Virus record (IMG/VR): IMGVR_UViG_3300030390_001024
Span: 11,861-75,860 of that record
DNA from: a virus
DNA length: 64,000 nucleotides
Direction: 5' to 3' (one strand)
In this document: positions 464 to 16,700 of the stretch, piece after piece
Layout: each line of letters begins with the position of its first letter
How positions within the stretch are numbered: position 1 is the stretch's first letter
The notes under the pieces: generated by a model
Told to the model about the DNA's origin: nothing
Database searches by the model: none
The model's input: only the letters and a program-made list of their open reading frames with translations
Position numbers and translations under genes: made by a program

Positions 464-569
464 TATGAGGAGAGAGATGGACGAACGGCACATTGCCAAC
501 CAACATTAACAGGGTGTTTAAGAGCATCCAGTTTTTAATTAAATTTTTATATCCACCTCTCTCCTTATA
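464..569 (+). ncRNA. putative structured intergenic RNA element E1
   Basis: 18-position stem 464-481/552-569 (one G-U, one A-C mismatch). It encloses hairpins GGCA-cat-TGCC (487-497) and GGGTGTT-taag-AGCATCC (512-529). Confidence 0.5.
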
Positions 570-583
570 TTAATATAAACAAT

Positions 584-1558
584 ATGATAAGCACTAAGAA
601 CTTAGTATTACAACCTGCTGATGTTCCAAGTTATTGGGTGTTTCAATATTATTTATCTCTACCAGAAACCTTAACAGGACAAGATGTAAAGATTAAGTCT
701 GTCTTTAATCCTAATGAGAAAACTCCTAGTTTTTGTATTTATGTTGATAAATCTATAATGCAATATAAATTCAAGGATTTCTCCACCGGTAAGAGTGGTA
801 ACAAAGTTGATCTAGTTAAACACATGTTTGATATAGATTTTCCTAAAGCATCAATGAAAATAATAAATGATTACAATCAATACGTAAAGAGCACAGATTA
901 TAAAAAACAAACCTTCAAGCCCGTAGCTAAGTGGGAAGTTGACTTTATTAAAAATAGAGAATGGACAACTGATGATAGCGGGTTTTGGTTAGACTTTAAT
1001 ATAGGCAAGACTATGTTAGATAAGTTTAACGTTAGGCCAATTGAGTATTACAACTTAGTTAAAGAAGAGAACTTCAAAGTCAAATCTATGAAGATAGAGG
1101 GTAAGTATATGTACGGATACTATGATAAGAATGGTAAGGCCTATAAATTATACCAACCTCATAGTAAACACAAGTTTCATAAGATTAATCCACATCTACA
1201 AGGTTATGACCAGCTTAAATATAATAAACCATATTTAGTAATCTGCTCATCTCTTAAAGATGCAATGTGTTTAGCTAGCATTGGCTATAATATAGAAGTT
1301 ATAGCTCCTGACTCAGAGAATACTATGATTAAACCACATATAATAGAGTATCTTAAGAAGAAGTATAAAAAAGTAATAACACTTTTTGACAATGATGATG
1401 CAGGTAAAGCTGCTATCATGAAGTATGGAGATATGTATAAATTAGATGGCCTAATATTTCCTACTGCTAAAGATATTTCTGATGGTATGAAAGAAAATGG
1501 TCTTGATTATGTGCATGCTATTATACAACCAATACTAAAAAAAGTAATAAATAAATAA
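584..1558 (+). CDS. DNA primase (DnaG-like, degenerate Zn-binding domain + TOPRIM)
   Basis: N-terminal SVFNPNEKTPSF...FKDFSTG (CHC2-like fold lacking most Cys). TOPRIM motifs ICSSLKD, LFDNDDAG and KDISD. Confidence 0.85.
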   Translation: MISTKNLVLQPADVPSYWVFQYYLSLPETLTGQDVKIKSVFNPNEKTPSFCIYVDKSIMQYKFKDFSTGKSGNKVDLVKHMFDIDFPKASMKIINDYNQYVKSTDYKKQTFKPVAKWEVDFIKNREWTTDDSGFWLDFNIGKTMLDKFNVRPIEYYNLVKEENFKVKSMKIEGKYMYGYYDKNGKAYKLYQPHSKHKFHKINPHLQGYDQLKYNKPYLVICSSLKDAMCLASIGYNIEVIAPDSENTMIKPHIIEYLKKKYKKVITLFDNDDAGKAAIMKYGDMYKLDGLIFPTAKDISDGMKENGLDYVHAIIQPILKKVINK

Positions 1559-1559
1559 T

Positions 1560-1955
1560 ATGAGAAAAATAAGATGGTGGATACCAGGTAACGTACCCTC
1601 TAGTAAAAATGGAAGACGTTGGACAGGTAAATACTTTATTGCTAGCAAAGCTGTAATGAATTATAGAAAAGCTACTAAAGATATATACTTAGAATATGCT
1701 GAAGATTTTAAACAAGAATTAGAAAAGGTAAAGTTACCAGTAAAAATTTCTTTTTATTTTATTAGAGGTAGTCGTCACAAGTTTGATTATATAAATCCTG
1801 CACAAACTGTGCAAGATGATATGGTTAAATATGGATGGATTGAAGATGATAATGCTGAGTTTATAATTCCTGGCTTTGAACAATATACATATGATAAAGA
1901 AAACCCCGGTGTATGGATAGAACTAATTTTAGATGAAGAAGACAATAACAATTGA
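1560..1955 (+). CDS. RusA-like Holliday junction resolvase / endonuclease
   Basis: IPGNVPSSKN start, acidic D-x-x-N...DD...WIEDDN motif, RusA-like size and C-terminal strand. Confidence 0.7.
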   Translation: MRKIRWWIPGNVPSSKNGRRWTGKYFIASKAVMNYRKATKDIYLEYAEDFKQELEKVKLPVKISFYFIRGSRHKFDYINPAQTVQDDMVKYGWIEDDNAEFIIPGFEQYTYDKENPGVWIELILDEEDNNN

Positions 1956-2235
1956 TGAGTTCTTTAGAATTAAACAAATGCTTCAGGGTCTCCCAGAAGA
2001 TCAAGCTTTAGGATGTGTAATCTATAATAATTTAGATTATGCTGATAAAGATATACTAGATAGATTAATGTGTAAAGCATTAATGTTTGATGCTAGAGTA
2101 CAATTTTGTATAGCCGTAAAGTATGGTTTTAAAATGGGTTCACTCAAGTCTTCAAGAATATATCAGTCCTTAACAGAAAATAAATCAGATGAAGTATATA
2201 CTAATATATTAAGAAAAATAAAAAACTATGATTAA
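1933..2235 (+). CDS. hypothetical protein with helical motif shared with the 4671 and 5710 ORFs
   Basis: ORF overlaps both neighbours. Its ITIDEFFRIKQMLQGLPEDQALG segment resembles segments in two downstream proteins. Confidence 0.65.
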   Translation: MKKTITIDEFFRIKQMLQGLPEDQALGCVIYNNLDYADKDILDRLMCKALMFDARVQFCIAVKYGFKMGSLKSSRIYQSLTENKSDEVYTNILRKIKNYD

Positions 2236-3391
2236 TATACAAGATCAGGTTGCTAGAACAACTAAAACTCTAATATTTGATGAGCCCTTTTATGGGCTCT
2301 TTTTGATTGGTATCAATAAGAAGTATAGTTTACATATACCTACTGCAGGTGTAAGTAAACAAGGTATTGGTATGCAATTGACTATAAACCCTGAGTTCTA
2401 TTTAGAACTGAAAGAAGAGCATAGATATGGGCTTATAAAACATGAGCTATTACATATAGCTTTCGGACACTTAATTTTAAGGGACAGGTATTCTAATCAC
2501 AAGCTATTTAATATAGCTGCAGATTTAGAAATCAACCAATACATATTGGAAAGTAATCTTCCAGAAGGAGGATTATTATTGTCAAGTTTTCCAGAGCTTA
2601 ATCTACCAAGAAAAGCGGGTACAGATAAATACTATGAGCTCTTAGACAATGCTCAAGAGGATGGTACATCTCCTACATTAGATTCATTGATGAGTCAAAT
2701 GGACGGAACTACACCTCACTGTCATGCTACATGGGAAGAGTTTAATGATTTATCTGAAGCTGATAAGAAACTAGTTGAAAAACAAATTGAACATCAGTTA
2801 AAAGAATCTGCTGAACAAACTGTAAAAAGACAAGGTACTGTTCCAGGAGAGCTAGCTGATCTTATACATAGGCTTACACATATAGAGCCTGCAAAATTTG
2901 ATTGGAAAGGTTATTTAAGAAGATTTGTTGGTAACTCTAGTATAGTATATACAAAGAAGTTAAGACGTAAATACAACAAACGTTATGCTGCAAATCCAGG
3001 TCTTAAGATTAAGTTTAAGAATCATATACTTGTTGGTGTAGATACTAGCGGTTCTGTTAATAATGATGAGTTAACAGAGTTCTTTAGTGAGCTGGCACAT
3101 ATGCATAAGACAGGTCACAAGATTACAGTAGCACAGTGTGATACTCGGCTAGGTAGCGTGAAAGAGTTTAGTCCTAATAGAGATTGGGAAATACATGGTC
3201 GTGGTGGGACAAGCTTCCAACCAGTGATTGACCACTATAATGAAAAGAAAGGGCAATATACAGCTCTAATATATTTAACAGATGGTGAAGCTTATCCGCC
3301 TGAAGATTGTCCAAAGAATACCTTATGGTGTTTGAGTAGTATATCTCAGATGAATGATAACTTACCAGGAAAAGTAATAAAATTTAATTAA
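2228..3391 (+). CDS. DUF2201-type metallopeptidase + vWA domain protein
   Basis: HELLH zincin motif, NIAADLEIN, vWA MIDAS DTSGS, GRGGTSF, YLTDG; adjacent to a MoxR ATPase. Confidence 0.85.
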   Translation: MINIQDQVARTTKTLIFDEPFYGLFLIGINKKYSLHIPTAGVSKQGIGMQLTINPEFYLELKEEHRYGLIKHELLHIAFGHLILRDRYSNHKLFNIAADLEINQYILESNLPEGGLLLSSFPELNLPRKAGTDKYYELLDNAQEDGTSPTLDSLMSQMDGTTPHCHATWEEFNDLSEADKKLVEKQIEHQLKESAEQTVKRQGTVPGELADLIHRLTHIEPAKFDWKGYLRRFVGNSSIVYTKKLRRKYNKRYAANPGLKIKFKNHILVGVDTSGSVNNDELTEFFSELAHMHKTGHKITVAQCDTRLGSVKEFSPNRDWEIHGRGGTSFQPVIDHYNEKKGQYTALIYLTDGEAYPPEDCPKNTLWCLSSISQMNDNLPGKVIKFN

Positions 3392-3400
3392 TAAAATAAA

Positions 3401-4669
3401 ATGGCACAAGTAAATTTAAATGTAACAGAACTAAAAGGATTTGTAAATCACATAATAGAAAACAACAGATTTCTACAGAATGAAGGAAAGCATCCTGTAT
3501 CCGTAGAAGTAGTAGGTGAATCAGGTATTGGTAAAACGTCAAGTATTGTAGAGCTAGCATCAGATAATAATCTAAAATTTGTAAAGTTAAACTTAGCTCA
3601 GATAGAAGAGCTTGGTGATCTAGTTGGCTTCCCTGTACGTCAATTCCAAATGTATAAAGAAAAGATAGTAAAATCAAATAACAATAATATAAACATGGTA
3701 ACTGCAACACAAAGAGCAGCGGGTGCCAGTTTAGCTAATCTAAACTCTCAAGTTACTAAAAAAGTAGGCATGTGGGTTGATGAGCTAGCAGTACAAGAGT
3801 ATCTAAAGAATGGATACAAGATGACTGGTAAGAATAGAATGTCTTATTGTGCTCCTGAATGGATTGCTGATGCAAAGGCCGGTGGTATATTATTACTAGA
3901 TGACTGGAACCGTGCAGATACAAGATTCATTCAAGCAGTTATGGAATTGATAGACCGTCAGACTTATATCTCATGGACTCTTCCAAAAGACTGGCATATT
4001 ATATTAACAGCTAACCCGGACAATGGAGACTATATGGTTAATACTGTAGACAGTGCACAGAAGACAAGATATATTACTGCAAACTTAAAGTTTGATGTAA
4101 ATGTATGGGCGAAGTGGGCAGAGGAAGCAGGTATTGACACAAGATGTATTAACTTTCTATTGCTTCATCCTGAACTGGTAACACAAGAGACCAATGCAAG
4201 ATCTATTACAACCTTCTTTAATGCTATATCTAGCTTTGATAACTTTGAAGATAACTTAAGCATTATTCAAATGATTGGTGAAGGTAGTGTAGGTGATGCA
4301 TTTGCTTCTATGTTTACAACATTTATTAATAATAAACTAGACAAACTGGTTACTCCTAAAGATTTATTGACACATGATAATGAGTCTTATATATTAGGAG
4401 AGTTGCGTGGGTGTATTGGTAAAGATGATGACTACCGTGCAGATATTGCATCAACACTATCTACAAGACTTGCTAATTATGCAGTTGTATATTCAAAAGA
4501 AAATACAATAAATCAAAAGATTACTGAGAGACTTATAGCATTATGTACAAGAGATTACTTTACTAATGATCTTAAGTACTTAATAGTTAGAACAATCTTT
4601 AGCGGTAACAAGCAGAAGTTTAATAAGATGATGATGAATCCAGAAATAATTAAAATGACAATAAAATAA
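3401..4669 (+). CDS. MoxR-family AAA+ ATPase
   Basis: Walker A GESGIGKTS, GDLVGFP, Walker B ILLLDDWNRA, ILTANP, DSAQKTR arginine-finger region. Confidence 0.85.
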   Translation: MAQVNLNVTELKGFVNHIIENNRFLQNEGKHPVSVEVVGESGIGKTSSIVELASDNNLKFVKLNLAQIEELGDLVGFPVRQFQMYKEKIVKSNNNNINMVTATQRAAGASLANLNSQVTKKVGMWVDELAVQEYLKNGYKMTGKNRMSYCAPEWIADAKAGGILLLDDWNRADTRFIQAVMELIDRQTYISWTLPKDWHIILTANPDNGDYMVNTVDSAQKTRYITANLKFDVNVWAKWAEEAGIDTRCINFLLLHPELVTQETNARSITTFFNAISSFDNFEDNLSIIQMIGEGSVGDAFASMFTTFINNKLDKLVTPKDLLTHDNESYILGELRGCIGKDDDYRADIASTLSTRLANYAVVYSKENTINQKITERLIALCTRDYFTNDLKYLIVRTIFSGNKQKFNKMMMNPEIIKMTIK

Positions 4670-4670
4670 A

Positions 4671-5708
4671 ATGGCAAATAAATCAGTATATCAGGTTTAT
4701 GATGCTGATGCTTTAATACACTTTGATCTAGCCGGTGACCCTAAATATGGGTTACTGGTTGGTGATAAGTTTGAAGAAGTATTATGTACTCAAGACCAAA
4801 CAACATATGAAAAAGTAGAGAGTTTATTAACTACACCTACTGAAGATGCACAAACATTTAGAAATAAAAAGAAAGCTTTTATATTACCTAAGTGTGCAGT
4901 GTCTCAAGATAGATTAAAAGCAGCTCTAAGAGAGCATAGTATAACTGTAACTAATGATTATGAAAAAGCAGATCTAGTTATAGGACATGATAATATAAAG
5001 TGTGCTTCTAATAATGGTGAAAATGTACCATCTACAGCCATGATGACAAAGCTATGGAACTATGAGCTTACAGCTGGTTCAAGCAGTAATACATCTTCGC
5101 TAGCAACTAGGATTAAAAACTTGAATTGTTATGCTATAATTACAGAAAAGATAACTGAGAAAATTAACTACTATAATTTAGATACCGGAGATGCTAGTCT
5201 ATATGATAGTTGGATGTTAACAGGTATGGCTATAAACATAGCACATCTAATTGAAACAACTGACTTAAGTGTAATTGATACTGAAACTGTCTTGCGTAGT
5301 TCAGCAAATATGATTACTTTAGATGAACAATTATTGAAAGATCTTAAGTCTCAATTAAATAGTGGTTATCACTCAGAAGATAAAGCTTTAGCAGCTAAAA
5401 TTATACCTACTATAGATTATAAAACTAACTATCATTTATTGTGGGAGCTTGGTAGAGAATGTTCTAATATATTCCATGACTTCAATAGAGATAAAGACTT
5501 ATGGTTTTGGATTGAAGAATCTAAACTGCGTAAATTTAGCAATAAAACTGCACAGGATATGATACTGTGGTTAGAAGTAAATGAATTACTTAACAAAAAA
5601 AACTTCAAACATTTAGAACCTATAGTAAGACAAGAAATCACTATACATAATAGAGACCTTTATACATTTAAAGTGGCAGTAAAAAAAGAATACTTAAAAT
5701 ATTTATAA
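4671..5708 (+). CDS. hypothetical protein with BRCT-like segment
   Basis: KKAFILPKCAVSQDRLK...ITVTNDYEKADLVIG resembles a BRCT-type beta-alpha-beta unit; apparent paralog of the next ORF. Confidence 0.55.
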   Translation: MANKSVYQVYDADALIHFDLAGDPKYGLLVGDKFEEVLCTQDQTTYEKVESLLTTPTEDAQTFRNKKKAFILPKCAVSQDRLKAALREHSITVTNDYEKADLVIGHDNIKCASNNGENVPSTAMMTKLWNYELTAGSSSNTSSLATRIKNLNCYAIITEKITEKINYYNLDTGDASLYDSWMLTGMAINIAHLIETTDLSVIDTETVLRSSANMITLDEQLLKDLKSQLNSGYHSEDKALAAKIIPTIDYKTNYHLLWELGRECSNIFHDFNRDKDLWFWIEESKLRKFSNKTAQDMILWLEVNELLNKKNFKHLEPIVRQEITIHNRDLYTFKVAVKKEYLKYL

Positions 5709-5709
5709 A

Positions 5710-6867
5710 ATGAAAGAAAATCAAAATTATATAATAAAGTTTAGAACAGATACAAAATTCTGGTCTAGCGGACACCTACAGAAAGATGGTGTGGAGTTTG
5801 AAGAAGACGGCATATTCTTATTGGATGGTGCAAGTTGGCAAATATCACATGAAGACTTAAGCTTCTTAGGTATAACAAAGTTACCAGATGATTTTGACAT
5901 CACTAATAAAAAATTATACAGATATCCTAAATTAAATTTACCTAGACAAAAGGTAGATTTATTAAAAGAAAAGTATAATGTAAAAGTAATAAGAGATGTA
6001 GAAAAATCTGATATGCAAATTGTATCATTAAAGTTATTTAATACTATTGCTAGTAGCAGCTGGAATAAATCATACACTAAGAAAAATTTCTATGAGATAT
6101 GTAAAGAGCTAGTTAAAAGACATCTTTTATCTGATGATGCAAGAAAAAGAATTGGTGAAATATTACAAGATACACATTCAACTTCTAGATTTGATATTCG
6201 TTGTAACAAAGAAGATTGGAATGCTACAACAGCAACTAAGAGTAAAACTTTAGAAGAGGTTGTGCATGCAATGAAAAAAGAATTTGAAGGTGAATATCAT
6301 AAGACATATGTAATTAAAGAGACTAAACACATTGATACATATAATCAACTTATGAAAGGTAAGATGATTGTTCTTGATAGAGATATAGCTAAGATATGTT
6401 CAGAGGGTCTTGCTATAATTGGTAAGGATGATTATCCGCAATTAAAAAAGATGATAGTAAGCAATGACATAGAAAATAGAACAATTGCTTTAGAAACTTT
6501 AGCTAATTGTAATCTTGAAGCTTCCTTTGATGTGGTGGCCTTATTATTTTATTATTTCTTTGAGTGGTGTAAATCAACAAATAACTGGAATACAGTTAAT
6601 GTTAAAACTTTAAGAAATAGATTTAGTGATATGTCAACCTATGGAAATGAGAGTAATGGTAATTATCATACGCAGATAGTTAAATATTTATATGATGAAG
6701 GTTACTTAACTGAATTTGCTATAGAGACTATAAAGAAAAAGATCTTTGATAAAGTTATAACATCTGCAGGTATAAACCAAGAACGCTCAGCATTTGAAAT
6801 ATCTCTTGAAGATATAAAAATTAAAACACCATTTAAAGAATCAATAATAGAAAACATATGTTTATAA
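5710..6867 (+). CDS. hypothetical protein with BRCT-like segment, paralog of the 4671 ORF
   Basis: KKLYRYPKLNLPRQKVD...VKVIRDVEKSDMQIVS, plus the C-terminal helical motif QLKKMIVSNDIENRTIALE. Confidence 0.55.
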   Translation: MKENQNYIIKFRTDTKFWSSGHLQKDGVEFEEDGIFLLDGASWQISHEDLSFLGITKLPDDFDITNKKLYRYPKLNLPRQKVDLLKEKYNVKVIRDVEKSDMQIVSLKLFNTIASSSWNKSYTKKNFYEICKELVKRHLLSDDARKRIGEILQDTHSTSRFDIRCNKEDWNATTATKSKTLEEVVHAMKKEFEGEYHKTYVIKETKHIDTYNQLMKGKMIVLDRDIAKICSEGLAIIGKDDYPQLKKMIVSNDIENRTIALETLANCNLEASFDVVALLFYYFFEWCKSTNNWNTVNVKTLRNRFSDMSTYGNESNGNYHTQIVKYLYDEGYLTEFAIETIKKKIFDKVITSAGINQERSAFEISLEDIKIKTPFKESIIENICL

Positions 6868-7850
6868 CAAATACTGAAAAGGAAGAGCAGTTCTATGCAA
6901 ATAAAGATTTTTGCTTTAGCTATTCTTCCTTAAATAAATTATTATTTTCACCATCTTTATTCTATAAAGATTATATACTATTTGACCGTGAGGTTAGAAC
7001 AGATAAACATCTGATTGAAGGAAAGCTTATACACTGCCTGCTATTTGAAGCAGAGAACGTTGACAAAAAGTTCAGCGTTGTTCCAGGTAAGAGCCCAAGT
7101 GATAACATTAGGAAAGTGTTAAAGGACATGTCTATACATACTGATTCAGATACACTAGCAAGTTGTGAAGACTTTGTAATTTTAGATTCACTTAAGAATC
7201 TAAACCTGTATCAGTCTTTAAAAGCTGATGAGTCAAGGATTGCTAAGATAAGAACTACAGATAATGAACCATACTGGAAATTCTTAGGTAATAGTAATGT
7301 AGATGTTGTTGACCAAGATACTTTATCAAGATGTACAGAAAGAGTAGAGGTACTAAAGCAGAATAAAGATGTGATGTCTTTGTTTAGTGAAGTAAAAACA
7401 GACTTTGATTTAGACCCTATTGAAACATTTAGTGAGAAGTACCTTAAGTCTGAACTAATTGATTGTGATTTTGGCCTTCATGGTTACATAGATTATTATT
7501 CAGTAGACACAGATAAAAAAGAAGTTGTTATATGTGATCTTAAAACAACCGGGAAGACAGTCTCTGAGTTCAAAGACACTGTAGACTTTTATAACTATTG
7601 GCTTCAAGCAGCTATTTATATGAAGCTTGTCTATGATACTTTAGGTGATGATAAGGAACAATATAATATAGACTTTAAGTTTATTGTAATAGATAAATAT
7701 GATCAAGTTTACGTATTTGATGTGTCAAATAACACAGTAAATGACTGGGCGGATGGTCTTGGTGGTGCAATAAATACTGCAAAATTCCATTATAATAGTA
7801 GAAATTACTCATTACCTATTGAATTCTTAACAAATAAGATTAAATTATAG
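6858..7850 (+). CDS. PD-(D/E)XK exonuclease (RecE/ExoVIII-like)
   Basis: FSYSSL, GKLIHCLL, HGYID, ICDLKTT, YWLQAAIY motifs. Confidence 0.8.
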   Translation: MFITNTEKEEQFYANKDFCFSYSSLNKLLFSPSLFYKDYILFDREVRTDKHLIEGKLIHCLLFEAENVDKKFSVVPGKSPSDNIRKVLKDMSIHTDSDTLASCEDFVILDSLKNLNLYQSLKADESRIAKIRTTDNEPYWKFLGNSNVDVVDQDTLSRCTERVEVLKQNKDVMSLFSEVKTDFDLDPIETFSEKYLKSELIDCDFGLHGYIDYYSVDTDKKEVVICDLKTTGKTVSEFKDTVDFYNYWLQAAIYMKLVYDTLGDDKEQYNIDFKFIVIDKYDQVYVFDVSNNTVNDWADGLGGAINTAKFHYNSRNYSLPIEFLTNKIKL

Positions 7851-7851
7851 T

Positions 7852-8436
7852 ATGGGTAATGTATACACAGAATATTTTCAGAAGAGTAAAGTCTTCCTGT
7901 ATCCTTTACTAGCTTTAGGCAGGGGTATAAAGTATGTACCTAGGGAAACCTATTGTGCATGGGAAGATGTATACTCTACTGATGATATGATGTTATTATG
8001 TGTATATAAATGTAAACTGACTGCTGATTTTAAAAAGTTTGCAAATAGACATTTAATAGCACACCCATTATTCAGGGATCATATATCATTAGATGACAAA
8101 AGACAAATGTTTATATTCAACTTTGATAAACATTCTCATGATTATAAAAATTTTATAAAGGGTAAGTACTCTCAATACTCAATTAACGCAAAGATTTCAA
8201 TACTTGAATTCTTTGAAACAGCTGAGGAAGAGCAGATACAATATATACAAGGGTTTTTGCAGCCAGATGAAGTACATGAAGCATACGCTGAAGACTTAAA
8301 TGTAAACATAGAAATACTAGAAGATGTTTATGAAGTCTGTTCTGCACCAAACATGGAAAAGGAAATATTAATTGATAATAATGTTATTTTGACTCAATTA
8401 TTAAAAGAAAGTTCCATATATTTGACATCTAAATAA
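7852..8436 (+). CDS. conserved phage hypothetical protein
   Basis: 194-aa ORF tightly tiled in the operon; FIKGKYS motif of the type seen next to crAss-like exonucleases. Confidence 0.7.
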   Translation: MGNVYTEYFQKSKVFLYPLLALGRGIKYVPRETYCAWEDVYSTDDMMLLCVYKCKLTADFKKFANRHLIAHPLFRDHISLDDKRQMFIFNFDKHSHDYKNFIKGKYSQYSINAKISILEFFETAEEEQIQYIQGFLQPDEVHEAYAEDLNVNIEILEDVYEVCSAPNMEKEILIDNNVILTQLLKESSIYLTSK

Positions 8437-8444
8437 TAAATAAA

Positions 8445-8861
8445 ATGGCACAAATAGGACAAAATATGATGTTAGTAAATTCTACATTTAGAAATGCTAA
8501 ATCATTTACATTAATCCCAGTGAGTATGGACTCACCGTATACAGAAGCTATGTTTGACCCTGCGTCAGGCATCTTAGCAGTCATCAGTAAGGTAATGAAA
8601 CAATCATATCATATGGTTCCAAAACTAGATGATGATGGACAGCCCCTGAGACTTAAGAAACCTAATCCACAAACAGGAAAGACACACAAGGAAGAGAGAA
8701 GATTGGTAGACACCTTCTCTGAGTTTTATTTAAGTGATAGAGCAGATATTGAAACATTTATTCATATGTTTGCTGTTAATGCAGAAAACTTCTCAGTAGA
8801 AGAATTCTTTGTTGACTTAAAGAAAACGGAACCTTCTAAAATTATATTACCTGGTCAGTAG
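8445..8861 (+). CDS. hypothetical protein
   Basis: 138-aa ORF with an AT-rich translation initiation region; followed by a terminator. Confidence 0.7.
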   Translation: MAQIGQNMMLVNSTFRNAKSFTLIPVSMDSPYTEAMFDPASGILAVISKVMKQSYHMVPKLDDDGQPLRLKKPNPQTGKTHKEERRLVDTFSEFYLSDRADIETFIHMFAVNAENFSVEEFFVDLKKTEPSKIILPGQ

Positions 8862-8899
8862 TGTTGAGTTGAGTAATATCCTTATTGACTAAAAAAAAG

Positions 8900-8925
8900 A
8901 AAGCTCATTGATTTGGGCTTTTTTT
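8900..8925 (+). terminator. intrinsic terminator, possibly bidirectional
   Basis: AAAGCTCA-ttgatt-TGGGCTTT hairpin followed by a T-run and preceded by an A-run. Confidence 0.7.
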
Positions 8926-8945
8926 GGCTCTATTAAATAAATACT

Positions 8946-9233
8946 ATGCCTGAAGAAATAACAAGAGAACAAATAATGGATGTCAACATACTATTAGCAA
9001 TGAATAGATGTATGGCTGAAATTGCACATAATTTACAATATATACATACTCAACAAGTCAAACAGAGAATAAAGCACGTTATAAAAACTGTAGACTTATA
9101 TGATAGAGAAGTTAAGAAGAAACTAACAGATGATCAGTCAGCAGCTATAGAAGACATATATGACTGTATAATGGATCTAGTTTTAGAAGCTAAAGAAGTT
9201 ACTATAAAAAATACTAAAGATGAAAGAATATAA
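8946..9233 (+). CDS. hypothetical protein
   Basis: 95-aa helical ORF, tiled with neighbours. Confidence 0.65.
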   Translation: MPEEITREQIMDVNILLAMNRCMAEIAHNLQYIHTQQVKQRIKHVIKTVDLYDREVKKKLTDDQSAAIEDIYDCIMDLVLEAKEVTIKNTKDERI

Positions 9234-9393
9234 TCCTTATGCAATGTTAGTTGGCTATAGTATGGCCGGAGCTAATACACCTTTGGAAAAGAAAAAATAT
9301 ATAAGAATAGATAAGAGGACCAAAAAATATGGTAATCCTAGAAAACATAGGCCTGATTGGCAAGGTATAACTTATAAAACTAAAAAAACATGA
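9220..9393 (+). CDS. small basic hypothetical protein (57 aa, not in ORF track)
   Basis: MKEYNPYAMLVGY...KTKKT*. It fills the gap exactly, and its TGA overlaps the polymerase ATG (ATGA). Confidence 0.55.
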   Translation: MKEYNPYAMLVGYSMAGANTPLEKKKYIRIDKRTKKYGNPRKHRPDWQGITYKTKKT

Positions 9394-11384
9394 AGAAGCA
9401 CTGGGTGATGGACTATGAAACTTTATTTGATTGTTTTACTGCAGTGTTTGAGCATTATAAAACTAATGAAACAAAAATCTTTGTAGTATGCAGGCTAAAA
9501 AATGATCTAACTGAGTTTATACAGTTCCTAAAACAAAACATAGAAAATAAAGAATGGCATATATCATACAATGGTTTAGGATTTGATGCACAAGTAACAC
9601 ATTATATCTTAGATCATTATGAAAGTTTTGAAAACATAGACGGTAATGATGTTGCATATAATATATATAAATACGCACAGAGAACAATTGAGAAGAGTAA
9701 TAATAGAGAGTTTAGTGATTATCCTCAATGGAAAATGGTAATAGGTCAAATAGATCTGTTTAAGTTACATCATTGGGACAACCCTGCTAAACGTTCTAGT
9801 CTGAAATGGATACAGTATAGCATGGATTGGGAGAATATTCTAGATATGCCTATTCACCATACATCTAAGATAGATAATCAAGAAGACTTAGATACTATTC
9901 TAGAGTATTGTGTCAATGACGTAAGGTCAACTAAAGAAATATTTAATAGGTCTACTGATTTAATAAAGCTAAGGAAAGAACTAACTAATACATATGGTAT
10001 TAATATGTTTAGTGCATCAGAGCCAAGAATTAGTAAAGAAGTATTTGGTTATTTCTTAACAAATATGTTAAATATACAGAAGAGAGATCTAAGGAATATG
10101 AAAACATATCGTGATACTATAAAGGTTAAAGATATTATATTACCTTATGTGAAGTTTACATCTGCTGATTTTAATCTATTACTACAAAGGTTTAAATCTT
10201 TAGAAGTCAGTGGAGATAAACTTAAAGGAAGTTTTAAATATAGTGTAAACTATAAAAATGTCAAGACTGACTTTGGTACAGGTGGTGTACATGGTGCAGC
10301 CAAGAAAGGTGTATATGAAAGTACAGAAGACATGGTTATAATGTCTTCAGATGTTACTAGTTATTATCCTAATCTAGCTATAAAGAATCAATGGTCACCT
10401 GGTCATTTTCCAAAGAAAGAATTCTGTGATCAATATGAATGGTTCTTTACTGAGAGAAAGAAGATACCTAAAAGTAACCCTATGAATTATGTATATAAAA
10501 TTATACTTAACTCAACCTTTGGTCTTAGTAATGATGAAAATAGTTTCTTCTATGATCCTGAGCTCTTTTGTAGAATAACTATTAATGGTCAATTGACTCT
10601 TATGATGCTATATGAGATGATAATGGAAAGAATTCCTGGAGCTATAGCTTTACTACAGAATACAGATGGCGTAGAAACCTTAATACCAAGGCCTTATATA
10701 GATGAGTATATGGAAATATGTAAAGAATGGGAAGATATAACTAACCTTAATCTAGAACATGATGAATATCAAAAGCTAGTATTATCTGATGTCAACAATT
10801 ATATTGGTGTGAATAACTTTATAGATGTTGACATTACTAAGTGGAGAGAAGTTAAACAGAGTCAGCCTCACTATCTATTTAAGGTAGAGAATGATAAGTT
10901 TAGCTTTGCTCCAGTTAAATTAAAGGGACGTTTTGATTTTCATAACTTACAATTGCATAAGAATAAGTCCAAATTAGTTATACCAAAAGCTATATATCAA
11001 TACTTTGTTAACAATGTACTACCTGAAGACTATCTAGAAGAAAACAAAAACATTCTAGATTACTGTATAGGTGGTAAATCCAAAGGTGATTGGCAACAGG
11101 TAGCTAGATATATTAAGGATGGCGCATTTGCTGAAGATAAATTACAAAAGATAAATAGATATTTTATCTCTAATGATGGAGTAAAGATCATCAAAGTAAA
11201 TAAGAAAGACAACAGAGAGATACAACTGGAGTCTGGTAGATGGGTTCAAACTATCTTTAATGTATTAAAGGTAGAGCCTAAATGGGAAAACTATAATATT
11301 AATAAAGCATACTACATGCAAGCAATAGAGACAGAGATCAATAGTATCTTAACAGTCTCTACTAATCAATTAAAACTATTTTAA
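9390..11384 (+). CDS. DNA polymerase family B with 3'-5' exonuclease
   Basis: ExoI DYE, ExoII YNGLGFD, ExoIII YCVND; polymerase motifs SSDVTSYYPN, KIILNSTFG and NTDG. Confidence 0.93.
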   Translation: MKKHWVMDYETLFDCFTAVFEHYKTNETKIFVVCRLKNDLTEFIQFLKQNIENKEWHISYNGLGFDAQVTHYILDHYESFENIDGNDVAYNIYKYAQRTIEKSNNREFSDYPQWKMVIGQIDLFKLHHWDNPAKRSSLKWIQYSMDWENILDMPIHHTSKIDNQEDLDTILEYCVNDVRSTKEIFNRSTDLIKLRKELTNTYGINMFSASEPRISKEVFGYFLTNMLNIQKRDLRNMKTYRDTIKVKDIILPYVKFTSADFNLLLQRFKSLEVSGDKLKGSFKYSVNYKNVKTDFGTGGVHGAAKKGVYESTEDMVIMSSDVTSYYPNLAIKNQWSPGHFPKKEFCDQYEWFFTERKKIPKSNPMNYVYKIILNSTFGLSNDENSFFYDPELFCRITINGQLTLMMLYEMIMERIPGAIALLQNTDGVETLIPRPYIDEYMEICKEWEDITNLNLEHDEYQKLVLSDVNNYIGVNNFIDVDITKWREVKQSQPHYLFKVENDKFSFAPVKLKGRFDFHNLQLHKNKSKLVIPKAIYQYFVNNVLPEDYLEENKNILDYCIGGKSKGDWQQVARYIKDGAFAEDKLQKINRYFISNDGVKIIKVNKKDNREIQLESGRWVQTIFNVLKVEPKWENYNINKAYYMQAIETEINSILTVSTNQLKLF

Positions 11385-11385
11385 A

Positions 11386-11703
11386 ATGACGTACAGACCA
11401 TTGCCAGAAGGGACCACAATTAAAGAGTCCCTTCTTCATGGCCTTGGATTGCATTCTACTAAATCTATTAGTAAGGATACTGTCCTAGGCATATCACATA
11501 TCAAGAACACAAATTATGAAGATAATTATATTAGAACTCCTTTAGGTGGGTTTATAAACCATAGTGACACACCTAACTTAAGAAAGATTGGTAGTGCTGA
11601 ATCAAGAGACATAGAAACAGGAACTTTAATGATTATAACTATTAGAGATATATCACCTGGAGAAGAGTTAACACTTAAATATGATTTATATGCATTTGAA
11701 TGA
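11386..11703 (+). CDS. SET-domain protein (putative lysine methyltransferase)
   Basis: HGLGL, GFINHSDTPN and ISPGEELTLKY are the canonical SET motifs (GxG, NHS, ELxxxY). Confidence 0.85.
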   Translation: MTYRPLPEGTTIKESLLHGLGLHSTKSISKDTVLGISHIKNTNYEDNYIRTPLGGFINHSDTPNLRKIGSAESRDIETGTLMIITIRDISPGEELTLKYDLYAFE

Positions 11704-11917
11704 AGTCAAGAAAGGGACCAAATTAAAATTAATTAAAAGAAAGCATTACATAGGCAACAAGCCTGAGACAATGAATATATTAGATGATGAGGTTTTAATA
11801 TATGAAGCTAATGATGGTCTTATTTCTATTTGTACAGATAAGGAAGGTAACCAATATAACATTCCTGGCTGGTATAAAGTAGAAATAATTGAAGAACCCT
11901 TGTCTGACTCAGAATAA
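11690..11917 (+). CDS. hypothetical protein
   Basis: Small beta-rich ORF overlapping the SET gene end; start is 11681 or 11690. Confidence 0.55.
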   Translation: MHLNEVKKGTKLKLIKRKHYIGNKPETMNILDDEVLIYEANDGLISICTDKEGNQYNIPGWYKVEIIEEPLSDSE

Positions 11918-11930
11918 TTTATTATATTTA
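11899..11930 (+). promoter_or_regulatory. putative Bacteroidota sigma70-type promoter
   Basis: CTTG-N20-TATATTTA, close to the TTTG-N19-21-TAnnTTTG consensus, 22 nt upstream of the 11953 ATG. Confidence 0.45.
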
Positions 11931-11952
11931 CACTTTAAAAGTTTAAACAATT

Positions 11953-12807
11953 ATGGGATACAAAAAACCAAAGGAAACAACCAGATGGCATTTAGAAAAT
12001 GCACCCTTACCTAACCACGGTGAGTCATATACAGTTATATCACATGGAGAAGTGATAGAAAACACATATAAATTATTATCAAAAAGTGGATTTATGGTCT
12101 CTAGAGAGATGTATAGATCTAGTAAGAATGCTAACATAGCTCAAGGAGTATATCATATATACCCAACCAATCCAACAGATGGAGACATTATAATGGAAAA
12201 AGAACTTGGAATGATGTTTGCTTGGACCAATTCATATGATAAAACAAAAAGCTTTGCTTCAGCAATTGGAGCTTATGTTGCAGTATGTAACAACGGTATG
12301 ATAGCCGGAGACATGATGAACTATAAAAGAAAACATAGATGGTCTGCTTCACATGATATACATGTTCACATGAGTGATCAGATGAAGTCAGCAGAAAAGT
12401 ACTACAAGAGATTAATAAAAGATAAAGAGGCGCTTAAGAATGTAACAGTTACAGCAAAAGAAGCAGCTGAACTAGCTGGCCGTTTATTTATTGAAGAGGA
12501 TTTGCTTGATTCACAACAGTTGTCTTGTGTAAAGCAAGAACTAATTAAACCTTCTTATAACTATTCAGTAGGTAAAGAGTCAGGGTGGGCCTTTTATAAT
12601 CATGTAACACATGCATTAAAGAAAGCACATCCACGGGACTGGGTAAATGACCAGCAGAACTTTCATGATTTTATAACAGTAGAATTATTAGGATCACCTG
12701 CATCTAAACCTATGTTTGAAAAACCTGTAGAGTATGTAGACATGGGTCAACTTAGTATTGATGTGGATTTAGTAGAGCAAGATAAGTTTACATTTGATAT
12801 ATCATAG
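11953..12807 (+). CDS. DUF932-like domain protein
   Basis: YTVISH, WTNSYDKT...IGAYVAVCNNGMI...KH, WAFYNHVT are characteristic DUF932-family motifs. Confidence 0.7.
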   Translation: MGYKKPKETTRWHLENAPLPNHGESYTVISHGEVIENTYKLLSKSGFMVSREMYRSSKNANIAQGVYHIYPTNPTDGDIIMEKELGMMFAWTNSYDKTKSFASAIGAYVAVCNNGMIAGDMMNYKRKHRWSASHDIHVHMSDQMKSAEKYYKRLIKDKEALKNVTVTAKEAAELAGRLFIEEDLLDSQQLSCVKQELIKPSYNYSVGKESGWAFYNHVTHALKKAHPRDWVNDQQNFHDFITVELLGSPASKPMFEKPVEYVDMGQLSIDVDLVEQDKFTFDIS

Positions 12808-12810
12808 GGT

Positions 12811-12888
12811 ATGCTAGAGGACATGTTATTATTTTTTTTATTTATATTCCTCTTATGGTTTGCTTTAACAGATCAAATGGACAAATAG
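12811..12888 (+). CDS. putative 25-aa membrane peptide (not in ORF track)
   Basis: MLEDMLLFFLFIFLLWFALTDQMDK*, starting 3 nt after the previous stop. Confidence 0.35.
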   Translation: MLEDMLLFFLFIFLLWFALTDQMDK

Positions 12889-12939
12889 GGAGAAACCAAT
12901 CAGGGTCTGAGTTTTTGCATTCTTGGGCCCTGCTCTCTC
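12888..12939 (+). ncRNA. putative structured element E2 (extended hairpin)
   Basis: GGGAGA/TCTCTC outer stem, AACCAAT internal loop, 11-bp stem 12901-12911/12922-12932 with three G-U pairs. Confidence 0.4.
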
Positions 12940-12943
12940 AAGT

Positions 12944-13009
12944 TATTACGGGGAGGGCATAAAGGCATATGCCAACAATAAGTTAATACTGTTGCCCTCC
13001 TTTGTAATA
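12944..13009 (+). ncRNA. putative structured intergenic RNA element E3
   Basis: 16-bp stem 12944-12959/12993-13009 (two G-U, one bulge) enclosing GGCA-ta-TGCC-AAC, as in E1. Confidence 0.5.
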
Positions 13010-13047
13010 TTTAAAACAAATTAATATCTGTAAAGATTTAGTAACAC

Positions 13048-13239
13048 ATGAAAAAATTTATTGAGTTTGCTCTGATCTGGTACAGTCAACAGATGGCCAT
13101 ACCGTTTTGGATCGTTGGACATATACATCTAAGCGTAAATATATATCAAGACATACATGAAATACTAGCTAGCATGGGGTTAAATCTAATCGTACTAATT
13201 GGTTTTATCATAGACTACAAAAAAAATAAAGACAAATGA
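13048..13239 (+). CDS. small membrane protein (2 TM)
   Basis: Two hydrophobic segments and a basic C-terminus; ATGA overlap with the next gene. Confidence 0.65.
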   Translation: MKKFIEFALIWYSQQMAIPFWIVGHIHLSVNIYQDIHEILASMGLNLIVLIGFIIDYKKNKDK

Positions 13240-13517
13240 ATTCTAAACAAAGAAAAGAAACACCTGTATACTCTGGTGTACTAAAATATTTTCCTGATGC
13301 AATCATGGAAGTAGCAAGAGTATCGTTAGCTGGGAATAAACAACATCATCCTGATAAGCCTTTACACTGGGATCGTAGTAAGTCAACTGATGAACTAGAT
13401 GCTTTATCTAGACATCTTATTGATGCTGGTAAAATTGACTCAGATGGTATACGCCACTCTGCTAAAGTAGCATGGAGAGCGTTAGCCAACTTACAAAAAG
13501 AAATAGAAAAATTATGA
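13236..13517 (+). CDS. DUF5664-like dATP/dGTP diphosphohydrolase domain protein
   Basis: YFPDAIMEVARVSLAGNKQH...W...DALSRHL...HSAKVAWRALA matches the DUF5664 pattern. Confidence 0.7.
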   Translation: MNSKQRKETPVYSGVLKYFPDAIMEVARVSLAGNKQHHPDKPLHWDRSKSTDELDALSRHLIDAGKIDSDGIRHSAKVAWRALANLQKEIEKL

Positions 13518-13696
13518 TATACTGGGACATATACTATATACCATGGGATAAAATGTTATTAGAAGATCCTGCTCGTCATACTAAATGGATGGTAATAATG
13601 GCACATGATAAAGGAAGTGCTAAAGAAGCAGGAAAGAAAGAAGGTATGGTAACTAGAGTAACTCATTTAAATAAAAATAGAGATACAAGATTCTAA
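13514..13696 (+). CDS. hypothetical protein
   Basis: The ATG at 13514 overlaps the upstream TGA; last gene of the + strand block. Confidence 0.55.
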   Translation: MIYWDIYYIPWDKMLLEDPARHTKWMVIMAHDKGSAKEAGKKEGMVTRVTHLNKNRDTRF

Positions 13697-13697
13697 T

Positions 13698-13776
13698 AAA
13701 TGAGGAGGGGGGTGGACACAACGTCCAAAAAATAATAATGTTAAATGTTTTTAATTTGTAACTCTCCTCCTTATTT
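13698..13776 (+). ncRNA. putative structured intergenic RNA element E4 at the convergence of the two modules
   Basis: 16-bp stem 13698-13713/13761-13776 (three G-U) and inner GGAC-acaac-GTCC hairpin. Its 5' end is 15/18 identical to E1. Confidence 0.5.
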
Positions 13777-13788
13777 TATTTTTAATTA

Positions 13789-16700
13789 TTATACATTAAA
13801 CCCTATAGATATTAGCTCTGATTTTACAAGACCGTAGTAATATGTTTGTGCCTGTGTAGCTGAACCAAAACTTGCACCATCTGATACATTACCAACATAA
13901 GTTATTCTTTTTGGTGCTCCATTTGAAAATGATTTGAAACTTCTTTCTGGACTATTTTCACTATACGCAAATGCTTGTGGTGCAAAGCTATTACTATAAG
14001 GTGTTGTTCCAGGAGGAGATGGACTAAAACGTCCTCCTGTTTGAGCAAAACCACCTGGACCCATTATTTCTTCTAAGTCATTATTTGCAGTACTACCATC
14101 AGCATTAACTTTTGTTACCCTAAAGGCTATACCTCTATACATATCTGATGAAGAGAGTCCTGCATTTGCAGCTTGTGCTTCTATTATAGTAATAAAAGAT
14201 CTTGTTTTACTTATATCGTCAAGTAATGTTGCATTTGTAGTGTTTACTCTATCATTCCAAGTACCAGAACCAGATTCACTAGGACTGGCTTCATAAGTAG
14301 TACCTCCACCTGCAGATACACCACCTGATTCATCAGCCCATGCCATTACAACAATATTTTTTGCACTTGGAAAAAAAGGATTAGGATAGGTTCCTGCACC
14401 TATTGTTGCTACAAGAGCACCACCTTGTGCTTGGAAACCTAAATAACCAAGAGGTCTTTCTTGACCATTGTGGAACCAATATAAATGATTATCATAATCA
14501 TCTTGACCATTAGTTGCTGTATTTGTATTATTGTTAGCAGCTGTACCACCTGTTGCATAGAAATCTTGAAGTAAGTTTCTAAAGCTAGTAGTATTAGTAT
14601 AGTCTGCTGTTTTTTGAGCTTGAGTTCTAGTAAATGTTATAATATCACCAGTTTGTGAAGTTAGTGTAGTACCTGAAGGGAGACTTAACGTTAGCGCCCT
14701 TAGCCCACTAGAAGGAGCTCCATCATTAAGTACTGTAGTACCCACAGGAACTCCAGGTCCTGAAACTAACATATCATCTACAATACATAAATGGGCTTGA
14801 TCTGTTTCTCCATTTGCATCATTAACTCTTCCTGCTTGATTTCCCCTAGCCATTACCATAGTAACACCCGAAGCATTTTGATGGAGTTTAGCTTTTACTT
14901 CAGGTACACTACTCATTATTGCTGTCGTTATAATTGTACTATTCATAGATCCTGAAGTATCACTATAGAAACAAAAGTATGTATCTTTTGATACTAGTAT
15001 TCCACCAATAGTAAAAGTTTGTGAATTAAAATTAGGATCTGGATCCTCAACTGTCATTACAACTTCAAAGTTACCACCAGTAGCTGGATAAGTTCCTGAT
15101 AAAGTTCCTGTACAGTTATTGTTTGGATCAGGAGTAAAAGTTAACCAACTTACTCCAGCTACAGGTCCATTTTGTGTAGTAAATATTGTAACAGGTCCGG
15201 TGTTATTTTCATTTACTGTAATAGTATACTTCAAGTCACTACATGGATGATCTGCATCAGATGTAGTCCAAGTATATGTCCAAGCATCTCCACCTGTTAA
15301 GGCTGGATATGTGTTTAAAGTTACTGGATCATCTGAAGTCCATATTGGAGCTTCAGCTACTGGTAAAACATTTATAGTAATTGTAGCTGGATCACTCTCA
15401 CAGTAACCATCATTATAAGTAAATGTAAATGTTATACTTCCATAAAAATTTAGAGCAGGTATAAATAACCATGTACCTGTACCTGTATCAAAAGTAAATG
15501 TCCCTGCTGCAGGGTTAGATAATGCACTTGCTGTAAATACTCCTGTATAATTTCCATAACCATCATCTACGAAAGTAACAGTATCACCTACACCTCCTGC
15601 ATCATCTTCATTGACATTATAGTTTCCACCACTAACAGTTGGACATGTATTTAAAGAAAATAATTTACAACAAGACTCCCAGTATAATATATACTTATAT
15701 GTAAAACCTCCTCCAGCAACCTCGTAGTTATGATATTTGAATTTAAGTGACTCACCATATTTAAGTGTTGATGTAGGATAACCGTTATCAACTCCTGCTG
15801 CCCAGCTTATTTTACTATCATATAGATTACCAGGAGTACCCCATCCAATAGGAAATCTTAGTACATTATCTGCTAGAAATGTTGTTTGCTTTACATTTTC
15901 TACTATAACAACTCCTGTCTGACCATCAGTTAGTGTAGTCATGCCTTTAATTGATCTATACGGTACTGTAGTATCATCTAGTGATATGTATGCGTTTAAA
16001 AATGTCTGATTCCAATCTGCTGTAGTACTCATTGGAAGAGTATCAAATCCTACAGGAGGAACAATTGTAGCAACATCTCTAAATTTAACTTCATTAGCAG
16101 CACTTGGATGTCTTACTAATACTTCAGTAAGTGTGTCATCTTGTGCTACAGTATCTAGATATAGTTCTTTTGTTTGTTGTAGACTACCATCATTAGTAAG
16201 TTTTTGTTCAGTAAAATTAGGATCAGCTGCTGGATAATTTGCAGGAGGTTGAATTATATCACTTTGTATTAATAGTGAATTTTGTATATTATCTCCATCT
16301 GGAGACCATAAAGGCACTCTCCTAAGTGTACCACTACCTTGAACACCCATGCTATTTGCAAATCTAAATTTAACTAAACCTGTACTTGCATCTAGTACAA
16401 GAACCTTTTCTTGTGTAGCATCCTGAGCTACATCTAGTAATTTCATTGTACCTGTATTTATCCACTTACCATCATTTGTAACTGTAGTAGCTGGAGTAAA
16501 TGCGTTTCCATCTTGAATCATTAATGAGTTTGCTATAGTAACACCATCTGGTGTAAACATAGATATTCTAAAATTTGTACCACTACCATTAATTCCTGGA
16601 TTGGGAGCCCAGCTAGGGAAACCACTTGGTCCTCCAGATGTTAAAACATCATTATTATTACCTGTTCCAAGTGCTCCAGAAGTAAAAGATCCAACTGCTG

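Follow-up and report, generated by a model that had tools for sequence, protein, structure and literature searches.

A conserved family of RNA elements at gene ends in the replication arm of a marine crAss-like phage

What is the function of E1, E3 and E4, three structured intergenic elements that recur along the rightward replication arm of an uncultured marine crAss-like phage? The stretch of DNA analysed here (the window, 64,000 nucleotides) covers bases 11861-75860 of a 75.9-kb IMG/VR viral contig (IMGVR_UViG_3300030390_001024; ~66% complete, 32% G+C). Positions given below are those of the window, and features lie on the + strand unless a strand is stated. The rightward arm includes the primase and DNA polymerase genes, and giant leftward genes in the window encode proteins of 4387, 2117 and 1932 aa. 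The sole cultured DNA-level relative of the contig is the crAss-like Cellulophaga phage phi14:2. In this relative the whole rightward replication module belongs to the early class and is transcribed by an injected virion RNA polymerase; no promoter motif common to the early genes was found, and the early promoters are undefined (10.1101/2020.03.07.982082). E1, E3 and E4 all lie in the arm that corresponds to the phi14:2 early module, on the coding strand. On the evidence of sequence comparison, the three are members of an undescribed family of conserved RNA structures. We favour, with moderate confidence, the reading that they belong to a phage-specific family acting in the sense-strand RNA, most likely to bring about intrinsic (factor-independent) transcription termination or leaky attenuation and, as hairpins, to protect 3' ends.

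Architecture of E1, E3 and E4

An earlier note, made from the letters of the window, had described three elements with long closing stems. Its coordinates and parts held: each element folds on the + strand into a closing stem of 16-17 bp around a multi-branch loop. E1 (464-569) occupies the gap that separates the primase gene (584-1558) from a gene ending at 454. It is a long form with a three-way junction, and its + strand fold (-36.6 kcal/mol, z = -7.1) was as good in 0/200 shuffles. A purine-rich 5' arm (464-481) pairs with a pyrimidine-rich 3' arm (552-569) in a stem of 17 bp that has one G·U pair and one A·C mismatch, position 477 being unpaired opposite 556. Within this stem lie hairpin H1, GGCA-cat-TGCC (487-497; pairs at alignment columns 27-30 with 35-38), and a second hairpin, H2, GGGTGTT-TAAG-AGCATCC (512-529), which is optional across the family. 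They are followed by an AU-rich stretch, GTTTTTAATTAAATTTTTA (531-549), a degenerate copy of the family motif TATTAAATGTTTT that lacks the ATG. A weak U-rich tail, TTATATTA, stands at 566-573 after the last C of the 3' arm (565), and its first four bases still pair within the arm.

E4 (13698-13776) ends the rightward replication module. It lies between the last rightward gene, which ends at 13696, and the first leftward gene (13789-17490, - strand), with which it is convergent. It is a short form (-28.6 kcal/mol, z = -5.6; 0/200 shuffles as good), and its closing stem pairs 13698-13713 with 13761-13776 in 16 bp, three of them G·U. H1 is here GGAC-acaac-GTCC (13714-13726), the copy of the conserved motif is TTAAATGTTTTT (13741-13752), and the 3' arm (13761-13776) runs into a U-rich tail, CTCCTCCTTATTTTATTTTTAA, arm and tail together reaching from 13761 to 13786. 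E3 (12944-13009), also a short form, lies in a 240-nt gap (12808-13047) between another hairpin, E2, described below, and a 63-aa gene (13048-13239). Its fold (-25.2 kcal/mol, z = -3.6; 1/200 shuffles as good) has a closing stem of 16 bp plus a bulge (12944-12959 with 12993-13009) and an inner GC hairpin, H1 (12964-12973).

The strings that the earlier note had quoted as shared between the elements, ATGAGGAG..TGGAC, GTTTTTAATT and GGCA..TGCC-AAC, were all found. It had also read the non-Watson-Crick pairs as G·U on the + strand; the predominance of G·U stands, with the A·C opposition of 477 and 556 in E1 as an exception. When the - strand was folded, E4 lost most of its stability (z = -1.6) through its three G·U pairs, while E1 and E3, which have few such pairs, for that reason still folded.

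A covariance model, R2, was made from 43 homologues of other contigs, with E1 and E3 left out, and was run unfiltered over both strands of the whole window. Its top three matches were E4 (64.8 bits), E1 (31.6 bits, E = 4e-5) and E3 (20.8 bits, E = 0.03), and the same three lead the whole contig. E3 is a borderline member of the family, its score being barely above those of the next, presumably chance, matches (20.4 and 19.4 bits). With another covariance model, R1, E4 scored 85.9 bits.

The 5' arms of E1, E3, E4 and most other members are Shine-Dalgarno-like (AGGAG, GGAGG), and the 3' arms resemble the anti-Shine-Dalgarno tail of 16S rRNA (CCUCCUU). This may be no more than the purine/pyrimidine terminator style of these phages, but a phylum in which Shine-Dalgarno sequences are largely avoided offers no explanation for it. 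Small open reading frames (ORFs) were rejected as a reading of the conserved parts. A 14-aa ORF in the 5' arm of E1 is cut to 6 aa in the related locus L039, and ORFs from the ATG of the motif vary in frame and length, the ATG itself being absent from E1, L039, L166b and E3.

RNA-level selection and distribution of the family

Homologous loci were collected around relatives of two proteins, 80 around the primase and 80 around a 93-aa protein (13236-13517). From 5' to 3', the plan of the family is an A-run and a purine 5' arm (often GGAG), H1, an A-rich linker, an optional H2, UAUUAAAUGUUUU, a pyrimidine 3' arm and a U-tract. H1 is a GC hairpin of 3-4 bp with a loop of 3-5 nt, usually GGCA-n3/4-TGCC; the linker includes ACCAAC or ACAAC in the crAss-like group; and H2 has 5-7 bp with a UAAGA(G) loop. 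H2 is optional even among related phages at orthologous slots: L199 has the short form there, and L272, L266 and L286 the long one. Conservation of GGCA/TGCC and of TTAAATGTTT is partly circular in the set of copies derived by pattern; in the 16 copies located by synteny only, the conserved motif is exact in nine and near-exact in four. In L179 (1223-1295), a scaffold of the E2 type, with its outer stem, AAACCAAC internal loop and inner stem, has its usual E2 loop replaced by an E-type apical module made up of a GGC hairpin and ATATTAAATGTTTA. Since it stands there on a different scaffold, the module behaves as a portable unit and appears to swap between stems.

Pair statistics were taken from 43 distinct sense copies aligned to the covariance model, over its 16 modelled pairs (closing stem and H1). 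Pairing was present in 97.2% of cells compared to 77.9 ± 0.9% in shuffled alignments, a level reached by 0/500 shuffles. Cells changed on both sides numbered 149 compared to 44 ± 6 in shuffles, and the covariation score of 0.643, compared to 0.263, was likewise reached by 0/500 shuffles. In controls in which the partner was slid along the alignment, pairing fell to 50-65%. An alignment fitted to a covariance model leans towards that model; 11 long forms aligned with MAFFT alone gave, in RNAalifold, an independent prediction of the same closing stem, H1 and H2, with 13/20 pairs still pairing after changes on both sides. A MAFFT alignment of all 50 copies was not used for the pair counts because the arms are out of register between subfamilies.

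Counted over 50 distinct copies, the pairs comprised 673 Watson-Crick, 65 G·U and one A·C. Covariance-model scores were 50-97 bits for the sense strand and 20-28 bits for the antisense strand. The excess of G·U over A·C and the higher sense scores together indicate that selection acts on the coding-strand transcript. Along with the strong covariation, these counts bear out the proposal of the earlier note that selection is on the RNA of the + strand.

We compared the occupants of the E1 and E4 slots among related phages. At the E1 slot, nearly all of the 80 relatives have a hairpin followed by a T-run; it is mostly a plain GC hairpin and is very variable. Among phages whose primases are 94-96% identical, the slot is occupied by three different cassettes. 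The cassette of L033 is a plain hairpin of 39 nt; that of L038, also a plain hairpin, has no more than the basal stem in common with E1; and L039-L045 have a true E1 orthologue with a compensatory U-A to A-U change in H2 (as in L039). The gap between hairpin and primase gene at this slot is an indel hot spot in L046-L054, where some relatives have an extra 15-aa ORF and others an ORF of ~48 aa with two CxxC pairs.

The E4 orthologue, L187:2010-2096, differs in its 5' arm by A/G swaps only, pairing being kept through G·U, and its counterpart of H1, GGGC/GTCC, also still pairs via G·U. At the same slot, L134 has an E4-like start with E1-like H1 and H2 inside, and this composite ties E1 and E4 into one family; L114, L113 and L166 have further variants. 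E3 recurs in L113 (97% identical); L114 and L187 lack it. Additional copies were found at other slots in L138, L161, L166 and L128, and a simple structural descriptor gave 20 matches on the gene strand and one on the opposite strand. Plain terminators of the same purine/pyrimidine style are found at L142, L150, L154, L171 and L073. The E4 slot of phi14:2 holds a plain bidirectional terminator, and no E-type element was found in positions 1-50,000 of that phage.

IMG/VR was scanned with a pattern made of the two conserved parts, GGCA-n3/4-TGCC and TTAAATGTTT. At least 119 loci matched, and among the matches listed 49/119 had a closing stem of at least 12 pairs and a T-run; the marine phage contigs of IMG/VR hold at least 50 distinct copies. 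Some carriers are crAss-like relatives and others are phages of 34-38 kb without detected proteins common to this contig, any protein shared with it being found in only 7/55 element-bearing loci. The remaining loci belong to AT-rich phages with small co-directional genes, and their few DNA-level matches are to phages of Flavobacteriia (Nonlabens, Cellulophaga, Flavobacterium). Near-complete genomes carry one copy in the 34-38 kb phages and one to three in crAss-like phages of 108-114 kb. One 38-kb phage has terminal repeats, and its only copy stands immediately upstream of the genes for the replication initiator and the helicase loader.

With the same pattern, 0/120 of the matches listed for bacterial and archaeal genomes had a closing stem of at least 12 pairs, compared to the 49/119 viral ones, and a host origin was rejected. 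A sample of 401 genomes from the class of a Flavobacterium metagenome-assembled genome gave only chance-like pattern matches, and cultured phages (INPHARED) gave only chance-level partial matches. General metagenome contigs held 5/120 true elements among the matches listed, which added nothing new. An exact scan of viral contigs with the 5'-arm string of E1 and E4 gave 28 scattered matches, which are probably due to chance. The family appears to be restricted to phages, no copy having been found, among the matches listed, in the cultured phages or bacterial genomes searched. The window had no match in Rfam 15 at gathering thresholds, and an E-value search around the elements gave best scores of 14-22 bits against gathering thresholds of 45-107; a tRNA/tmRNA scan found none. 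The earlier note was right to call the family undescribed.

Terminator reading and its alternatives

The U-tract is close to universal. The eight nucleotides after the last C of the 3' arm average 6.75 T, and at least six are T in 47/51 copies, against a background T frequency of 0.35. The upstream gene is on the same strand in 45/46 cases, the element filling the intergenic gap, and eight copies stand at convergent module ends. Together with the presence of plain terminators in equivalent slots, the U-tract and the position form the signature of an intrinsic terminator with an elaborated loop. The earlier note had judged the loops too large for terminators and had proposed small RNAs excised by RNase III. 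This part of its interpretation is not supported in the form given: a canonical U-tract follows the 3' arm in nearly all members, and the plain hairpin-plus-U terminators of relatives at the same slots favour a terminator or attenuator with an elaborated loop.

Like intrinsic (Rho-independent) terminators, including branched and A-tract bidirectional ones, the E family has a G/C-rich stem with a U-tract directly after it and stands in sense orientation at the ends of genes or operons. The A-run 5' of its stem mirrors the U-run, and relatives have plain terminators in the same slots. Unlike them, it has a loop of 45-75 nt with one or two hairpins and conserved sequence, most of its copies abut the next start codon, and its module is common to phage groups without detected shared proteins.

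We propose that transcription of the upstream gene would run on into the element, which would form the 3' end of its RNA. The pair of small inner hairpins would fold first and draw the distant arms together, and the G-rich 5' arm would then zip with the C/U-rich 3' arm as the polymerase reaches the U-tract, so that some transcripts would be released. Because most copies abut the next start codon, some read-through would be needed for expression of the downstream gene, and this need would point to graded or regulated termination. The loop is no mere spacer: the portable module conserved in it (GC hairpin, A-rich linker, UAUUAAAUGUUUU and, optionally, a second hairpin) is probably the recognition site of a trans-acting factor that tunes termination, processing or RNA stability. 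Such a factor would probably be host-encoded, because phages without detected shared proteins carry the same module. A bolder proposal, which we put forward only tentatively and consider unlikely as it stands, is that the apical module, made up of the GGCA-n3/4-UGCC hairpin, the A-rich linker, UAUUAAAUGUUUU and the optional hairpin with its UAAGAG loop, serves as a portable RNA recognition platform that marine phage groups without detected shared proteins, probably of Flavobacteriia, exchange horizontally. It would recruit a host factor to the terminator stem and so make a regulated switch (antitermination, attenuation or targeted processing) for entry into the replication genes.

Several points weigh against termination. 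With 45-75 nt and one or two inner hairpins, the loop far exceeds the ~3-8 nt of an intrinsic terminator, and its size would slow closure of the hairpin. The next gene starts 10-20 nt past the stem in 35/50 copies, which leaves no room for a promoter of its own, and an efficient terminator would silence such an adjoining gene. The U-tracts of E1 and E3 are the weakest in the family (5/8 T), and a consensus terminator scan missed all three closing stems, flagging only H2 of E1. The sequence conservation of the module is without explanation under simple termination. The RNA data are assembled contigs of two marine metatranscriptome runs (5-7% of sampled words) and carry no end information. By analogy with phi14:2, the rightward module would be transcribed by the virion RNA polymerase, which may or may not respond to intrinsic terminators (10.1101/2020.03.07.982082).

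Some of these points would be met by a site of RNA processing or stability, which we regard as possible, though unlikely. The cut would fall in the stem (RNase III) or in the AU-rich loop (an enzyme of the RNase E/G or RNase Y type), separating the cistrons and leaving a protective hairpin, as at the R sites of phage T7. Cleavage would allow expression of the downstream gene, unlike a strong terminator, and copies do lie between co-directional genes of one operon. Stems of 13-17 bp may suit such a site, and the single-stranded GUUUU of the conserved motif fits the preference of RNase E. The T7 sites (R0.3, R1.1 and others) are likewise homologous families of intergenic stem-loops in polycistronic early phage mRNA, with sequence conserved beyond the needs of pairing, and both they and the E family probably leave a stabilising 3' hairpin. 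The T7 sites, however, are ~20 bp with an internal loop and have no U-tract, whereas the 13-17 bp of the E family close a multi-branch loop and are followed by one. Processing would not require the near-universal U-tract, the same slots hold plain terminators in relatives, and RNase III prefers about two helical turns, more than these stems provide.

More doubtful is a conditional terminator in which the loop serves as a platform for antitermination or attenuation. H1 and the linear motif would be nut-like (a boxB-like hairpin and a boxA-like stretch) or would form a protein-binding attenuator, and a factor would switch on read-through into delayed genes (primase, replication initiator). The conserved sequence and portability of the module suit this explanation, as does a downstream gene without room for its own promoter. 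The single copy per 34-38 kb genome, directly upstream of replication-initiator and helicase-loader genes, recalls the position of lambda tR1. The lambda nut sites and tR1 also place a small GC hairpin and a conserved linear stretch in early transcripts, near a terminator upstream of replication genes. There is, however, no sequence similarity to the lambda sites, no N-like protein was identified and no candidate factor is known. The element-bearing phage groups have no detected common protein, the module lies within the terminator and does not compete with it, and at the E4 slot there is no downstream gene to switch on.

That the module mainly serves, or spreads by, homologous exchange between co-infecting phages, as a PeSL-like or selfish recombination cassette, is improbable. 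The three cassettes at the E1 slot among relatives with near-identical primases are consistent with exchange, as are the presence or absence of E3 among close relatives and the occurrence of the module in phage groups without detected common proteins. Co-occurring strain variants in a public run, X3, have 457-564 replaced by a 39-nt plain hairpin of the L033 type, and an X3 variant has 12933-13041, the E3 region, replaced by an unrelated 29-nt stretch. The PeSL composite promoter-terminator motifs of T4-like phages are also small conserved intergenic regulatory cassettes of early regions, and replacements or indels at the motif between close relatives are seen for them as for the E family (PMC2839356, PMC4122927). 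PeSL motifs, however, include an early promoter and flank variable genes in many copies (PMC2839356, PMC4122927), whereas no promoter was found in the E family, which has only one to three copies per genome. The E3 indel has no target-site duplication, and the strong RNA-level selection shows that the elements function in the transcript. A MITE-like element was rejected for the same lack of duplication and the low copy number, despite the inverted arms. Another X3 variant has a 9-nt insertion after 12938, as in L113.

A signal read in the DNA, either a replication origin or a hairpin promoter of the N4 kind serving the virion RNA polymerase, is very improbable: H1 resembles the small GC hairpins of N4 early promoters and copies adjoin primase or replication-initiator genes, but 65 G·U pairs to one A·C are the mark of RNA, not of duplex or cruciform DNA, the E4 slot has nothing downstream to transcribe, there are no iterons, and the family occurs in 34-38 kb phages, with no giant polymerase gene seen in the inspected loci. 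The undefined early promoters of phi14:2 are a further point in its favour (10.1101/2020.03.07.982082). A conventional promoter was rejected as well. Sigma-70-like sites were not in excess in the window as a whole, and none was found at the elements; by inspection, the Bacteroidetes -7 motif TAnnTTTG was not found in the conserved stretch.

Neighbouring features and implications

Just 5' of E3 lies E2 (12888-12939, + strand), a different conserved hairpin with an outer stem GGGAGA/TCTCTC, an internal loop AAACCAAC and an inner stem of 10-13 bp, in which many compensatory changes are seen over 12 distinct variants in crAss-like relatives. Its loop, TTTTTGCATT, is conserved and it has no U-tract; E2 looks like a separate undescribed RNA motif. 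It begins where a 25-aa hydrophobic mini-gene, MLEDMLLFFLFIFLLWFALTDQMDK (12811-12888, + strand), ends. Because this mini-gene is conserved in L113, L114 and L187 with synonymous changes, it is probably a genuine gene for a small membrane protein. The close relative L187 lacks the 63-aa gene (13048-13239, + strand) that lies between E3 and the gene for the 93-aa protein. Plain hairpin-plus-T-run terminators occur elsewhere in the rightward arm, at ~8892-8926 (+) of the window and at G000:C1:4415-4465 (+); the latter has G·U pairs on the + strand only, as in the E elements.

Little is understood of how crAss-like phages, or Bacteroidota phages at large, control transcription, and neither the early promoters of phi14:2 nor the termination signals of the virion polymerase are defined. 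A covarying RNA element that marks gene ends in the early, replication arm is a concrete handle on this control. In practical terms, the family can join RNA-family libraries to annotate operon ends in marine phage contigs. The presence of its module in phage groups without detected common proteins, with none in the bacterial genomes searched among the matches listed, hints at a shared host factor or at horizontal exchange of regulatory RNA. Should the module prove to be such a portable platform for a regulated switch, it would be a cis-regulatory RNA of a new class, in a phylum about whose RNA-based regulation little is known.

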